Shown here: one piece after another, positions 205 to 13,043 of the stretch | How the letters are laid out: each line of letters opens with the position of its first letter | How positions within the stretch are numbered: position 1 is the stretch's first letter | UHGV virus genome: UHGV-0364865 | Reading direction: 5' to 3' (one strand) | Origin: a virus | DNA: 16,820 bases | The notes under the pieces: generated by a model | What the model was told of the DNA's origin: nothing | Seen by the model: the letters and a program-made list of their open reading frames with translations, nothing else | Database searches by the model: none | Translations under genes and position numbers: made by a program

Positions 205-378
205 TAAATCCTGGTATTTGTAATGACTGGTTCTTATCTCAACGCAGCCCCTTACCGCGCGCAAAATGCTCAATATCAAGCATCAGCAATGAGATGTTTA
301 ATCTGGATTCACTCCAGAAGTGAGCACCACCCTGTCTACAGAGCCAGATGTGAAGGATGATGAGTAAAATTATCGCTA

Positions 379-846
379 TCATCGAAGGCATTGCGTCCTG
401 ATGTATTCCTGAAGCGTTCTCAGTGCTGTTTGGTCGCGGATAATTCCGTCCCGGATACCGAGAACGTTTCGTCCAGCAACTGGAGAGAGTTCGACGGTGG
501 CATCATTGCCCATGCCGGAGGCGCTGGAGGTTTCGGCTGAGGATGGCACAGGGCATTTTCCTTTGACGAGCACCCGACCACCATTATCAAGCTTGCGCCG
601 AAGAGCATCATTTTCAGCTTTCGCATCAGCTAACTCCTTCGTGTATTTAGCATCAAGTGCATCAGCAGTACGCTGGCGCTGCTGCATGTCAGTAATGGTG
701 GCAGTCGCCTGCTTCAGCTCACTGACTTTTTTATCGCGCTGCTCTTTGTAGGTCATGGCGTTATCACGGTAATGATTAACAGCCCATGACAGGCAGACGA
801 TGATGCAGATAACCAGAGCGGAGATAATCGCGGTGACTCTGCTCAT
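379..846 (-). CDS. Rz: Rz i-spanin (inner-membrane spanin subunit)
   Basis: 155-aa ORF; N-terminal ~30 aa ([30 protein letters not shown]) and the [18 protein letters not shown] segment match lambda Rz as I recall it; N-terminal TM helix plus charged helical periplasmic part; immediately follows the endolysin with a 4-nt overlap. Confidence 0.9.
420..626 (-). CDS. Rz1: Rz1 o-spanin lipoprotein, embedded out of frame inside Rz
   Basis: 68-aa ORF fully inside Rz in another frame; signal peptide ending in lipobox VVGC; proline-rich mature region ([11 protein letters not shown]) typical of Rz1. Confidence 0.8.
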
Positions 847-6064: not shown

Positions 6065-7441
6065 TCATACGTCAGCCCCTTGTGCATATCGTCTGCCACG
6101 CGCAGCAGGTGCATTTGATGCTGTGCAAATCTGTCTGGCTTCATCCTGGTCACACGCAACAAAGTGTCCGTTGCAGAACCGCTGGTAAACCGTACCAAGT
6201 GAGCCAAAACGGTTTTTCGTCACGATGATTTCAGCAAATGGCGCGGCGCTACTGTTCTCGTCATATACAGCTTCCCGATAGAGCATGATGATTGAGTCTG
6301 CGTCCTGTTCAATGCTTCCTGAATCACGCAAATCTGCGTTTGTCGGGCGCTTGTTTGGTCGCTTCTCAACATCGCGTGAAAGCTGACTCAGGGAAATAAC
6401 CGGTGTTTTCAGGTCTTTCGCCATCGCCTTCATGCTTCCGGAGATGTGAGCAATTGCGAGGTCGTTGCGGTCTGCTTTCGGCTTCTCAATCAGGCCAAGA
6501 TAATCCGCCATGATGAGTGACAGGTTTGGATTTTCCTGTTTGTGCCTTTCTGCGATTGAGCGAATTTCTTCGACCGATAACCGCGAGGCATCGACTACCC
6601 ATACATCCAAATCTGCAAGCTGACTCATGCCGTTAGCAACACGCGCCCAGCCTTCGTCATCCATCGATGCAGGATTTCGCAGTACGCTAACCGACATTCT
6701 CCCGGCGTTGGCAATGCTTCGCTCTGCAATCTGCAATGCGCTCATTTCCATTGAGAAAATCAATACTCCGCGCCGGACGTCAGAACCAGGAATAACGCGG
6801 CTTGCAACGCCTTCGGCAATCTTCAGCGCCAGTTCGGTTTTCCCCATACCAGGACGAGCAGCGATTATCACCAGGTCTTCTGCGTTCATCCCTCCGGTGA
6901 TAGCGTCAAGCTCTTCGATTCCGGTCTTCAGGGTATCGGACTCTTCTCCGTTCCTCAGACGCCTGTCAAGCGTGTCAGTGTAGTCGGTGATGATTTCCCC
7001 TAACCGTACAGGTTTAACCTCGTCACGGGGCTTTCTGATAGCTGAAAGACGCTTTACGAGCTCGTCCATCGCCTGACTCGATGTATCGATGGTTCCGCTC
7101 TGAATTGGTTCACGCATTTCATCCATGATTTCCAGCACCAGACGGCGGTGATAGTTATCCGCGACCATTCCGGCATATCCCTTCAGGTTTGCGGCACTCG
7201 GGCAGTTTTTGCTGGTCATCAGGATTGACGTGAAATGCTCCTCTCCGCACGCCTCGGCAACCATCAGCGCGTCGATTAGGTTTCTGTTTCGCGCCTGCTT
7301 GCGGATAACCTCGAAGGCTTTCCGGTAGAGCGGAATTGAAAACGCTTCCGGCTCCAGCGTTGCCAGAACGTCGCTGGCGGTTGGTGTTAATCCACCAATC
7401 AGCAGGCCACCGATAACGCTCGCTTCGATATCCTGTTTCAT
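6065..7441 (-). CDS. Replicative DNA helicase, DnaB-like (P22 gene 12 type)
   Basis: 458-aa ORF with DnaB N-terminal domain and a RecA-like core: Walker A (ARPGMGKT), Walker B-like (LIMADYLGL), and typical DnaB motifs ([20 protein letters not shown]); ATGA overlap with the initiator gene. Confidence 0.9.
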
Positions 7442-8385
7442 GCAATCCCCCTGTCTGCAAACTTCCCTTCCCGAACTCCCGTTAACGAGTCTTCTCTCAG
7501 CAGGTAATCAAAATCAGCCGTCCAGCCCGTGTCGTTGTCTCCGAAGTAAAACGGCTTGGCCTGATGCACAAACGCCCTGACATACGCCCTGAAACCGTCC
7601 ACGTTTGGCGTTTTCAGTTGCGGGATGATTTTCTTCAGGCGGCGTTTGCGTTTCTCGTTGACCGCAACAGCGTGTGGCAGTCTGTCACCGACTTCGGTGT
7701 TGTAGGCGTTCAGGAAGGATTCGTAGTCGATTCGTTCTGCCTTGCGACGTTCAGGTTTAACCTGCCCATCGCCTCCCCCATTGGGGGGTAGGGGGGTATT
7801 ATTTATATTCTTGTTAATACCTTCTTGTTCATGATGTGCGGTTGTTTGTGCGGCTTCATGTGCGCTTTCATGTGCGGCATGTACGCTGAAAGCCGCGCCA
7901 TTGCTGGCTTCATCATGTGCGGAATCATGTGCGGTTGTTTGTGCGGCTTCATGTGCGGGTAAATCGTCCATTTTTTGAGCATATTCATGGTAATTTGTGA
8001 TGGTTATCACACGACCTTTTTGCTTCTCTCCATCAATGGAGATCATCCCCTCTTTCACAAAAACCTGAAGCATCCGCTCAACCTGATCACGGCTTGCTGG
8101 CTTGCCATGTCTGTCGCATAACTGAAGACCTAAATCAGCTGCTGTCACAACCAGTTGACCGGGTTGCAGATGCCATTCATTACCTTTGAAATTCGCTTTG
8201 TATGGCTTTCTGGCGGCATTCAGGAGAAGGTTTTCCCACAGGGTGCGAAGATAAACATCTTTCGCCCATGACTGTTTCAGAATGCTCCGGTACAACGGAA
8301 TGTAACCAGTTTTCTGGTTCTCCATCCTGTTGCTCCTGCGCTCGTGTGCGGCGCTGAAATCGTAGATTTTTGCTGTATTGCTCAT
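7438..8385 (-). CDS. Replication initiator, lambda O-like (P22 gene 18 type)
   Basis: 315-aa ORF; N-terminus [10 protein letters not shown] resembles lambda O (MTNTAKILNF); internal repetitive linker ([10 protein letters not shown]...) is encoded by DNA iterons; directly upstream of the helicase. Confidence 0.8.
7829..7958. repeat. Origin-type iterons inside the initiator gene: tandem ~12-bp units (consensus about YTTCATGTGCGG) in two clusters, including a perfect 31-bp direct repeat (7834-7864 and 7927-7957), with an adjacent AT-rich block at about 7797-7820
   Basis: Read directly from the sequence; the arrangement (iterons plus AT-rich segment inside the O-like gene linker) parallels ori-lambda. 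The 61-aa ORF 7803-7988 is an artefact of these repeats. Confidence 0.75.
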
Positions 8386-8387
8386 AA

Positions 8388-8660
8388 CTACCTGCCTTGA
8401 CGAAAGACCTTAAGAACATCGTTAAACTGACTTACGGATATGTCTTCTTTGAGAAGCTTTTCCAGAAATGCGTTTGGAATGAACGTATATCCCTCCTCTT
8501 TTGGTAGAGACTGGAGCAACGCCCTCGCCTCAGCCTTCAGAAGCTCAGTTCTGGCAACTTTCACAAAAGAGATTTGAGTTCTTTCATCAATGGAACGAAG
8601 GAAGCGCAAACGCTTAGCTTCTTTGTGTGTATCAGGTGGATTAAAGCCTTTGTTTCGCAT
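8388..8660 (-). CDS. Hypothetical protein between cII and the initiator gene
   Basis: 90-aa product starting at an internal Met of the 146-aa tracked ORF; SD GAGGT about 7 nt upstream; this start avoids overlap with cII, whose stop is at 8683. Confidence 0.55.
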   Translation of the reverse strand: MRNKGFNPPDTHKEAKRLRFLRSIDERTQISFVKVARTELLKAEARALLQSLPKEEGYTFIPNAFLEKLLKEDISVSQFNDVLKVFRQGR

Positions 8661-8682: not shown

Positions 8683-8982
8683 TTAAAAATCCATCTGGAT
8701 TTGTTCAGAACGCTCGGTCTTGCACACCGGGCGTTTTTTATTGGTGATTTCATCAAGCGCATACTTAAAAGCCCTGCTAATCGGACTGATGTCTGATGCC
8801 ATTCCGAAAGCACACAAGACCGAAGCAATAAATCTCCAGTCCGTTCTGCTTATCTTCGATTCATGACAGCCAATCATCTTTGCCAGACCGCGCTGGGTAA
8901 GCGTTGACAGGTTGATGAGTAAATCTGTTTCTGCGCGATCAACGTCGCGCTGTGATAGTTTGCTGTAACTTGTTTGTTCCAT
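8683..8982 (-). CDS. cII: Transcriptional activator CII
   Basis: 99-aa ORF whose C-terminus ...ITNKKRPVCKTERSEQIQMDF matches the lambda CII C-terminus (..TNKKRPAATERSEQIQMEF) and has an HTH-like region; positioned between cro and the replication genes. Confidence 0.8.
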   Translation of the reverse strand: MEQTSYSKLSQRDVDRAETDLLINLSTLTQRGLAKMIGCHESKISRTDWRFIASVLCAFGMASDISPISRAFKYALDEITNKKRPVCKTERSEQIQMDF

Positions 8983-9339: not shown

Positions 9340-9450
9340 ATGCCCTCCATAGTAACCATAACGCAATAATACGATATGTACTTTTAGAATGCAAACAAAA
9401 AATACATCTTGTGCATGGATGATTTTAGTACAGAGCGTAATAATAAGGGT
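9340..9450. promoter_or_regulatory. Divergent immunity control region (OR-type) containing PR for cro and a PRM-type promoter for cI
   Basis: PR on the minus strand: TTGCAT (plus 9389-9394), 17-nt spacer, TATTAT (plus 9366-9371), then SD and the cro ATG. Imperfect palindromes (e.g. ATGCAAAC...TTGTGCAT at 9389-9416) and recurring TTTAG motifs are operator candidates; exact operators not resolved. Confidence 0.65.
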
Positions 9451-10110
9451 ATGAAAATGAAATGGTATGAACTGGCTAGATCCAGAATGAAAGAGCTCGG
9501 CATAACTCAAGAGAAGTTAGCCGAAGAGCTTGGTATGACGCAGGGTGGAATTGGTCACTGGTTGCGCGGATCTCGTCATCCATCTCTTGACGAGATTGGT
9601 GTGGTGTTTAAATACCTTGGTATTGATAACGTCTCATTCAACCACGACGGTACATTTTCACCTGTTGGCGAATACTCATCTGCCCCCGTTAAAAAACAAT
9701 ATGAGTACCCTGTTTTTTCTCATGTTCAGGCCGGGATGTTCTCGCCTGAGCTTAGAACCTTTACCAAAGGTGATGCGGAGAGATGGGTCAGCACAACCAA
9801 AAAAGCCAGTGATTGTGCGTTTTGGCTTGAAGTTGAAGGTAATTCCATGACCGCGCCAACAGGATCCAAGCCAAGCTTTCCTGACGGGATGTTAATTCTC
9901 GTTGACCCTGAGCAGGCTGTTGAGCCAGGTGATTTCTGCATAGCCAGACTTGGTGGTGACGAGTTTACCTTCAAGAAACTGATCAGGGATAGCGGTCAGG
10001 TGTTCCTACAACCACTAAACCCGCAATATCCAATGATTCCATGCAATGATAGCTGTTCCGTAGTAGGGAAAGTTATCGCTAGCCAGTGGCCTGAAGAGAC
10101 ATTTAGTTAA
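9451..10110 (+). CDS. cI: CI-type prophage repressor (HTH plus LexA-like S24 autopeptidase domain)
   Basis: 219-aa product from the ATG at 9451 (SD AAGGG upstream); N-terminal HTH; C-terminal S24 domain with catalytic Ser in GNSMTAP and Lys in FTFKKL; divergent from cro. Confidence 0.85.
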
Positions 10111-12074: not shown

Positions 12075-13043
12075 ATGAGTGAAGTAACAGATTTAGTTGT
12101 TATTGAAAAAGCAAATGCAATGACTGTATTTCAGTCTTCCGACCAGATTGAAGAAATCCTTCAAAAGGTTGAACGTGAAGTTATGTCCTTTGTGCCTGAT
12201 ATCACAACGGCAAAGGGCAGAAAGGAGATCGCTTCTCTGGCGTATAAAGTTGCGCAGACGAAAACATATCTCGATGGTCTTGGCAAAGACCTTGTTGCTG
12301 AACTGAAGGAAATTCCAAAGCTAATTGATGCCAACCGCAAGACAGTGCGTGATCGCCTTGATGAGCTGAAAGCCAAGGCACGCCAGCCTCTTACTGATTA
12401 TGAGGAAGAACAGGCGCGGATTAAAGCCGAAGAAGAAGCTAAGGCAGCAGCTGAAGCTCTCGCAAAGCAAATTGAGTCTGACCATGAAATAGCGATTTTG
12501 ATGGATCGCGAATTTGACCGCCAAAGAGAAGAGGCAAGACTCAAAGCGGAGCAGGAAAAGCGAGAGCATGAAGAACGATTAAAAAGAGAAGCTGAAGAGA
12601 AAGCCAGAGCAGAAGCCGAAGCAAAGGCAAAAGCCGAAATTGAAGCAGCAGCAAGGCGAGAAGCAGAAGCTAAGGCCGCAGCAGAACGTGCAGAGCGTGA
12701 ACGCATTGAAGCCGAGCAACGAGCACAGCGCGAAGCAAAAGAGGCAGCAGAACGAGCTGAAAGAGAAAAGCAGGCAGCAATTGAAGCAGAACGCAGAAAA
12801 GCACAGGAGGAGGCTGAACAAATCCGTCGCGATGCTGAAGCAAAAGAGCAAGCCAGAATAGCAGAAGAAAAAAGAATCAAGGACGAAGAAGAGCGTAGAG
12901 CAAAGGATAAAGATCACCGGAAAGAAGTAAATAACAAAATACTTGCTGACCTTATCAAGGTTGGCGCATCAGAAGATGTTGCTAAAAATATCATAACAGC
13001 CATCGTAAAAGGCGAAGTATTCGCAACAAAAATAACCTACTAA
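12075..13043 (+). CDS. Hypothetical protein with a long, highly charged E/K/R/A-rich central helical region
   Basis: 322-aa ORF with strong SD AAGGAGG; about 120-aa N-terminal region, about 150-aa central segment made almost entirely of E, A, K, R, Q (predicted single alpha-helix or coiled coil), and about 45-aa C-terminal region; antisense ORFs across it are low-complexity artefacts. Confidence 0.65.
   Translation: MSEVTDLVVIEKANAMTVFQSSDQIEEILQKVEREVMSFVPDITTAKGRKEIASLAYKVAQTKTYLDGLGKDLVAELKEIPKLIDANRKTVRDRLDELKAKARQPLTDYEEEQARIKAEEEAKAAAEALAKQIESDHEIAILMDREFDRQREEARLKAEQEKREHEERLKREAEEKARAEAEAKAKAEIEAAARREAEAKAAAERAERERIEAEQRAQREAKEAAERAEREKQAAIEAERRKAQEEAEQIRRDAEAKEQARIAEEKRIKDEEERRAKDKDHRKEVNNKILADLIKVGASEDVAKNIITAIVKGEVFATKITY

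Follow-up and report, generated by a model that had tools for sequence, protein, structure and literature searches.

A probable replication origin of 12-nucleotide direct repeats inside the initiator gene of a lambdoid prophage

The repeat array and its flanks

The viral genome UHGV-0364865 (16,820 nucleotides (nt); this whole stretch of DNA is called the window below) carries a gene for a replication initiator of the lambda O / P22 gp18 type, and a conspicuous repeat array lies within that gene. An earlier sequence-only reading of the window took these repeats for a replication origin. From comparison of the locus with annotated origins and with relatives, we consider it highly probable that the repeats are the replication origin of a lambdoid (CUS-3/HK97/P22-like) prophage, situated where the gene for its own initiator codes for the linker. 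This interpretation is supported by the Phage_rep_O domain of the initiator, by positional homology to known origins, by a link to the lambda right arm, by constraint at silent sites, by co-variation of the units with the protein and by the position of a mosaic junction in the AT block. The coordinates of the features are collected in Table 1.

The initiator was found to consist of a lambda-O-like N-terminal tail (MSNTAKI..), a winged-helix domain (about amino acids (aa) 21-140), a linker (aa 141-197), which is the part encoded by the putative origin, and a C-domain (about aa 198-315). The Pfam family Phage_rep_O (PF04492) matched aa 20-132 (E=3e-15, 56.9 bits, cut-off 28.7), the protein matched phrog_345 'replication initiation O-like' (1.4e-99), and the C-terminal 126 aa were 58% identical to P22 gp18, so that the units fall between the Pfam N-domain and the gp18-like C-domain (aa 185-309). 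At the nucleotide level the gene shares 99.3% identity with 'O' of phage CUS-3 and about 98% with its counterparts in many Stx2a-converting phages.

Within this gene, eight 12-nt units are arranged as two clusters of four in exact 12-nt register. All share an invariant TGTGCG core, which occurs on the plus strand at 7835, 7847, 7859, 7871 and at 7916, 7928, 7940, 7952 (CCGCACA on the coding strand). A degenerate ninth unit adjoins cluster 2; many E. coli relatives carry a perfect unit (GCGCACAT) there. Units 2-4 of cluster 2 are an exact copy of units 1-3 of cluster 1, giving a duplication of 31 nt (7834-7864 = 7927-7957) beyond which the identity stops. The array is in frame and encodes an initiator linker of (A/E)(H/Q)xx repeats (AH..AQ..AH..). 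The sequence-only reading had described at least eight units of about 12 bp in two clusters (7829-7877 and 7908-7958), the same exact duplication and a repetitive linker encoded by the repeats; all of this was confirmed, with cluster ends shifted by 1-4 nt in the in-frame delimitation and the linker verified by translation of the open reading frame (ORF).

Both period-12 arrays were reported by Tandem Repeats Finder. As a chance control, 100 dinucleotide-preserving shuffles of the window were searched for direct repeats within 200 nt, and the longest one found had 13 nt, compared with the 31 nt observed; the repeats are thus not explained by chance. The count of the 6-mer within 130 nt was weakly discriminating (eight observed, shuffle maximum seven); what counts statistically is the strict register of 12 nt and the repeat of 31 nt. 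The exact duplication, together with the resemblance of the two clusters in several relatives, argues for concerted evolution between the clusters.

A few further observations were made on the array and its surroundings. The 33-nt spacer holds short inverted repeats (GCCA..TGGC and AAGCC..GGCTT) besides its conserved motif; the spacer may serve as a binding site for a host factor or have a structural role. A terminator-like match at 7848-7865 was discarded as an artefact of the repeats themselves. The core-like sequence CCGCACAC at 8344-8351 (minus strand) was considered as an autoregulatory site and rejected, one-mismatch matches being at background (17 observed, 15 expected); it corresponds to AAHE codons in the N-terminal tail of the initiator, in frame with the iteron units, and is probably a chance occurrence.

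Relative to the minus-strand gene, the AT-rich block lies downstream of the repeats. Its best 34-nt segment (about 7799-7832) is 79% AT and belongs to the top 0.24% of all 34-nt segments, the whole sequence being 52% AT; the sequence-only reading had correctly recognised such a block on this side, at about 7797-7820. The third codon positions of the block carry 1.53 bits, compared with a mean of 0.90 bits in the N-domain, which marks the block, too, as under selection at the DNA level. The right arm that follows contains an inverted repeat CCCCCA/TGGGGG (7775-7780 / 7782-7787), and the origin as delimited here reaches to this C-run/G-run palindrome at 7775-7796, beyond the extent of 7797-7958 first proposed. 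A 7-nt perfect inverted repeat (GGTATTA / TAATACC, 7795-7801 / 7815-7821) was also seen to flank the core of the AT-rich block.

Table 1. Putative origin, flanking genes and corresponding elements of lambda and P22
Feature	Position	Strand	Remarks
Initiator gene, lambda O / P22 gp18 type, 315 aa	7438..8385	-	Identified by ORF, Pfam, PHROG and BLAST
Iteron cluster 1, promoter-proximal	7912..7959	-	Coding-strand 12-nt direct units CCCGCACATGAA GCCGCACAAACA ACCGCACATGAT TCCGCACATGAT
Inter-cluster spacer, 33 nt	7879..7911	-	Contains GCCAG(C/T)AATGGCGCGGCTT and the degenerate ninth unit, given here as AGCGTACATGCC
Degenerate ninth unit	7879-7890		ATGTACGC; adjoins cluster 2
Iteron cluster 2	7831..7878	-	Coding-strand 12-nt direct units GCCGCACATGAA AGCGCACATGAA GCCGCACAAACA ACCGCACATCAT
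AT-rich block	7797..7832	-	Coding strand ATGAACAAGAAGGTATTAACAAGAATATAAATAATA; presumed DNA-unwinding element
Right arm	7775..7796	-	CCCCCC-TA-CCCCCC-AAT-GGGGG, short C-run/G-run palindrome
DnaB-like replicative helicase, P22 gene 12 type	6065..7441	-	Next gene; presumed partner of the initiator C-domain
cII homologue	8683-8982	-	Upstream of the initiator
cI-type repressor	9409-10110	+	Upstream of the initiator
Window, gene coordinates	units nt 427-555 of the 948-nt gene		AT tract 554-587, 79% AT; right arm CCCCCCTACCCCCCAATGGGGG 590-611
Lambda, gene coordinates	four annotated iterons, O nt 349-433		AT tract 438-471, 79% AT; palindrome TCAGAGAATTCTGGCGAATCCTCTGA
P22, gene coordinates	annotated rep_origin, gene-18 nt 353-497		Three or four ~20-nt repeats and AT tract within the rep_origin; right arm ACCCCCTTACCCCCTAAAGGGGG

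Comparison with known origins and with relatives

When set beside the ori regions of lambda-like and P22-like phages, as the sequence-only reading had suggested, the array matched both annotated origins in position; the order of the elements and their orientation relative to transcription are identical in lambda, P22 and the window. The origin of lambda likewise lies in the linker-coding middle of its initiator gene O, where repeated initiator sites are followed by an AT tract of the same AT content and then by a short palindrome. The N-domains of the two initiators belong to the same Pfam family, and their tails are alike (MSNTAKI in the window, MTNTAKI in lambda). The annotated rep_origin of P22 takes in the same AT tract and the same ACCCCC..TACCCCC..GGGGG right arm as the window, with the C-run/G-run element at its end; this element is also present in HK97. 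The ori-lambda layout of the earlier proposal was thus recovered, and so were its shorter, tandem units, the window having 12-nt direct repeats without dyad symmetry compared with 18 nt in lambda and about 20 nt in P22.

The differences are equally clear. Lambda has four dyad-symmetric iterons of 18 nt, as annotated, in one cluster, and each of them is bound by an O dimer; in the window, two clusters together hold eight or nine direct units that are asymmetric, 12 nt long and unrelated in sequence to those of lambda. The two N-domains are related at the profile level only (BLASTP 32% identity over the first 69 residues, E=0.004), and the partner is a DnaB-type helicase in the window but the P loader in lambda. 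With P22 and HK97 the window shares the C-domain, at the amino acid level with P22 gp18 and at 96% DNA identity with HK97, as well as the DnaB-like helicase gene that follows it. The helicase of the window matched Pfam DnaB_C (2.4e-77), the DnaB N-terminal domain (3.9e-13) and phrog_19 (7e-135). The repeats of P22 and HK97 (TCGGTAAAAC..., TTAGCTAAAACAGCTAA...) differ, however, as they are about 20 nt long, dyad-symmetric and unrelated in sequence, and the N-terminal domains of P22 and HK97 gave no BLASTP similarity to the N-terminal half of the window initiator.

The window agrees with lambdoid in-gene origins in its position inside the initiator gene, the Phage_rep_O N-domain, at least four repeats, an AT tract with palindrome and module exchange, and departs from them in having 12-nt direct units in place of dyad-symmetric iterons of about 18-20 nt. 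From the P22 gene 18/12 module it has the C-domain and the helicase but neither the gp18-type N-domain nor the P22-type repeats. Plasmid iteron-type origins have DnaA boxes beside iterons that lie outside the rep gene; in the window the iterons are inside the gene, and DnaA-box matches were absent from 7571-8625 and at background frequency in the window. In gene 18 of phage L, six imprecise 11-bp repeats (TGTCCAACGGA) were proposed as an origin from sequence alone (PMC8022706). Like the present units, they are short direct repeats (11-12 nt) that a P22-like phage carries within its initiator gene; the repeat sequence and the initiator are different, and neither two clusters nor comparative or co-variation evidence was reported for them. 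The Stx phages 933W and P27 carry six lambda-type iterons, to which binding of O was shown biochemically (PMC7466680), so that iteron number varies among lambdoid origins. Theirs are true lambda-sequence iterons with a lambda-like O, whereas the window module is of a different specificity class; the latter is also found in many Stx2a phages.

Relatives of the module were collected in a one-genome-per-species scan, which gave 28 prophage loci with N-domains 66-85% identical to that of the window and with host genera including Enterobacter, Citrobacter, Brenneria, Sodalis, Yersinia and Pantoea. The plan of the array was judged on 27 of these loci, the contig of the other one being cut off within the N-domain, and on the genomes of two phages. 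It was common to all spanning loci: three or four units, a fixed gap, three or four units, CATCATGAACAAGAAGGTAATAACAAGAATA... and the AT block. In 28 of the 29 loci (window counted) the array was fixed at 3+3 or 4+4 units with a gap of 45 nt from start to start, which holds GCCAG(C/T)AATGGCGCGGCTT; the copy-number variants among relatives were 3+3, 4+4, 4+5 and one apparent single cluster. A scan of viral contigs returned relatives only at 97% identity or more and was informative for copy-number variants, not for co-variation.

A set of relatives of the window initiator was also available as proteins (P0001-P0074). Most of these are 'partial' entries, 150-210 aa long, whose end falls within the array or shortly behind it, which suggests that short-read assemblies often break at these iterons and would explain the frequent breaks inside the initiator gene. 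Variants in this set include three units in one cluster and, in P0064, a single cluster.

The array was found joined to different C-terminal halves. HK97 and mEp213 match the window at 7438-7812 with 96% identity, and Klebsiella and Yersinia phages match it at 7802-8338 with 75-80%, which places a mosaic junction at 7802-7812, in the AT block, between an N-domain/iteron module and a C-domain/helicase module. For the C-domain, 28 diverged relatives (26 of the prophage loci and the two phages) were compared. The array is joined to a lambda-O-type C-terminus and a lambda-P-type loader in 26 of them; one (L109) has a P22/HK97-type C-terminus and a DnaB-like helicase, as in the window, and one has another C-terminus. 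The type of C-domain agrees with the type of partner gene in 27 of the 28. These breakpoints and comparisons indicate that the N-domain travels together with the units, and the C-domain together with the partner gene, and the same two exchangeable modules are seen in lambda, whose record marks hybrid junctions at the same place. Such swapping of modules is classical behaviour of lambdoid O genes. The connection to lambda is most direct in Klebsiella phage 2 LV-2017, where the same N-domain and a 4+4 array are followed by the right arm of the lambda origin and a lambda-type C-domain; this right arm is 85% identical to lambda over 60 nt, including TTCGTC.GAGAATTCTGGCGAATCCTCTGAC.

These arrangements bear on whether the units might bind the initiator mainly for control (by titration or handcuffing, or as autoregulation of the early operon) and not for the start of replication. 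Plasmid iteron arrays are established to have such dual roles (reviewed in PMC4980987), lambda-type phages can be inhibited by a plasmid that carries lambda iterons (PMC3349717), and two separate clusters could pair. Even so, a conserved AT tract and a palindrome directly follow the array, as in the lambda and P22 origins, the array is fused to the lambda origin right arm in relatives, and the 16.8-kb window yielded no further candidate for an origin. Control and origin roles are not mutually exclusive, and control alone, which is less economical given the AT tract and the right arm, appears to us very unlikely.

Constraint on the units and co-variation with the initiator

Constraint was analysed on 196 units from the 29 loci. 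An information-rich core of 8 nt (C-C/G-G-C/A-R-C-A-T) was apparent, the other four positions being nearly free. The first C of the core is the third position of a codon for a varying residue (Pro, Ala, Thr, Ser or Gly), and it is C in 195 of the 196 units; in the N-domains of the same genes, used as a control, C occupies 25% of third positions. The Ala codon of the core is only GCA or GCG, with GCC or GCT in none of 159 cases compared with 51% of the N-domain Ala codons. It is clear from these counts that the codon-silent positions of the units are under constraint at the DNA level. Since the silent positions are fixed while the amino acids vary, it is largely the DNA motif that gives rise to the protein linker, and not the linker to the motif.

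The core falls into two classes that are nearly uniform within each genome, with GCA (CCGCACAT) in 12 loci and GCG or GAG (CCGCGCAT or CGAGCAT) in 17. The A/G switch between lineages is block-wise, being all-or-none within most loci. Two N-domain columns (window numbering) split the classes without exception: the GCA class has Ala82 and Asp100, and the GCG/GAG class has Ser or Thr at 82 and His100. In a neighbour-joining tree with these two columns masked, the classes were interleaved, and the association is thus not a single phylogenetic split. L094 of the A class and L100 of the G class, for instance, are 88% identical, and the first 57 residues of L100 are 98% identical to those of an A-class Yersinia phage. 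The same pairing of Ala/Asp and of Ser-Thr/His was recovered in an independent protein-only set, in which Glu-His units occur almost only with His.

A search of the PDB by sequence with the N-domain gave only noise, and the fold was therefore taken from prediction. An AlphaFold model of initiator aa 1-145 (mean predicted local distance difference test score (pLDDT) 72.8, 75-89 in the core) contains a helix at 82-88, a helix at 99-112 and a beta hairpin at 115-129. Its Foldseek neighbours were all winged-helix DNA binders (CodY, MarR/OhrR-DNA, RosR-DNA and ArsR). Residue 100 is the second residue of the 99-112 helix, ahead of the beta wing, and would thus stand at the start of the presumed recognition helix, while residue 82 opens the 82-88 helix, the presumed preceding one. 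Because the co-varying residues sit in a predicted helix-turn-helix, the N-domain is likely to be the part that recognises the units.

The repeats might instead only code, as a low-complexity Ala/His-rich flexible linker grown by slippage, with no DNA function and with the origin elsewhere. The array is indeed in frame with its (A/E)(H/Q)xx repeats, its copy number varies (3+3, 4+4, 4+5 and one single cluster) in a way typical of slippage-prone linkers, and the exact 31-nt duplication reflects recent copying within the array. Such a linker would nevertheless not be expected to have its silent positions most conserved and, at the variable positions, a free exchange of amino acids, and this pattern is therefore a strong argument against it. 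The synonymous A/G switch, all-or-none in most loci, tracks the helix-turn-helix residues, the spacing of the clusters is fixed, and the array lies exactly where lambda and P22 have their origins. Furthermore, nowhere else in the window is an iteron-like array accompanied by an AT tract; one more long tandem repeat exists, at 12587-12670. We regard a purely coding role as still less probable than a purely controlling one. The least credible alternative is that the 8-nt cores are read not by the initiator but by a factor of the host, such as DnaA, or by a different protein of the phage, such as one resembling a repressor; the conserved spacer motif could be taken in its favour, but the array always travels with this N-domain while C-domains and partner genes differ, the core base co-varies with N-domain residues, and DnaA boxes are lacking around the array.

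Several points weigh against an origin at the repeats, or against details of it. Some conservation is to be expected of repeats that double as coding sequence, and concerted evolution within the array alone could make the codons uniform in each genome. The 29 sequences are related and their tree is simple, so that the number of independent switches implied is small. Confidence in the structural model is moderate, and its fold matches are weak, the best having E=3e-3. No inverted repeat was detected inside the units or between neighbouring units, whose orientation is direct, and the mode of binding must therefore differ from that in lambda and P22. A second, weaker AT-rich stretch (65-70% AT) lies at 7960-8019, on the upstream, promoter-proximal flank, so that the unwinding site is assigned by analogy only. 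Initiator binding, its stoichiometry, the melting site and the recruitment of the helicase are steps that we infer. No origin is annotated in the matching phage and E. coli records among the search results listed, and no description of this iteron family or experimental data on it were found in the searchable literature, which is incomplete and leaves the CUS-3 genome paper outside.

On the stretch at 7960-8019 it was further observed that it contains an A-tract (CAAAAAATGGA) that is kept in relatives and could contribute to bending or unwinding.

Proposed mechanism, genomic setting and significance

An origin at the repeats would be expected to work by analogy with lambda and P22, whose established mechanisms are summarised elsewhere (PMC7466680, PMC8022706). 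Rightward early transcription (cro, cII, a 90-aa ORF, initiator and helicase) would express the initiator and would also cross the origin. The N-terminal winged-helix domain would bind the eight (or nine) 12-nt direct units with core CCGCACAT, probably with one protomer per unit, head to tail; this arrangement is likely because the units are without dyad symmetry, unlike those of lambda, P22 and HK97. An O-some-like nucleoprotein complex could then form on the two clusters, which are 81 nt apart, and the adjacent AT-rich block would melt, helped by supercoiling and by early transcription through the gene. The initiator C-domain, being of the P22 gp18/HK97 O type, would recruit the phage's own DnaB-type helicase from the next gene, and no loader of the lambda P type would be involved. 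Speculatively, the eight units would hold as many protomers as four lambda dimers do.

A bolder possibility, which we put forward tentatively and would not ourselves favour at present, is that the locus represents a distinct class of O-type origin. In this class single winged-helix protomers would line up head to tail along two clusters of 12-nt units, each made of an 8-nt core and a 4-nt spacer, in place of dimers on dyad sites, and a specificity switch would pair Asp100/Ala82 with CCGCACAT and His100/Ser-Thr82 with CCGCGCAT. If true, orthogonal pairs of initiator and origin would be at hand ready-made, and the co-evolution of a protein with its DNA sites could be traced.

The surroundings of the initiator gene are those of a lambdoid early region, with cro also located upstream of it. 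Between cII and the initiator, a 90-aa ORF (8388-8660, minus strand) ends 3 nt before the initiator ATG. It matches phrog_2519 (unknown function, E=6.5e-57) and sits where orf48 of P22 and gp53 of HK97 sit, and the interval is unannotated in the CUS-3 record. A strong terminator-like hairpin followed by a T-run was seen at 8707-8737 on the plus strand, antisense to the 3' end of cII, with the position and orientation of the terminator of lambda oop RNA. An Rfam scan of the whole window gave no match, including for this hairpin, and no known structured RNA is therefore indicated in the window. The tandem repeat at 12587-12670 has a period of 6 (AGAAGC, about 14 imperfect copies) and lies inside a 322-aa ORF (12075-13043, plus strand), where it probably codes for a Glu/Lys/Ala-rich repeat. 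Phage mEp213 annotates a 'TolA' protein, a possible counterpart of this ORF, somewhere within the region matching the window.

The location of an origin inside its initiator gene is a textbook concept and the layout found here is ordinary; only this set of short 12-base candidate sites seems to be newly annotated. In a full-text search, array-specific 19-mers had no match and 10-mers were met only in unrelated primer sequences, and the literature on the origins of P22, CUS-3, Sf6, HK620 and Stx phages offered general statements and nothing on this iteron type. The DNA as such is already in the databases, and of 5,426 complete E. coli genomes 281 contain the origin segment.

The analysis would thus give an explicit origin annotation to a replication module that is common in prophages of E. 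coli, Salmonella, Klebsiella and Yersinia, as far as sequence comparison can assign it. It also illustrates clearly how the putative binding sites of a protein can dictate the sequence of a linker in that same protein, and a candidate specificity switch of two residues and one base that is testable. Its uses may be modest: candidate orthogonal origin/initiator pairs, and a better annotation of origins in Stx phages, whose replication drives toxin production.

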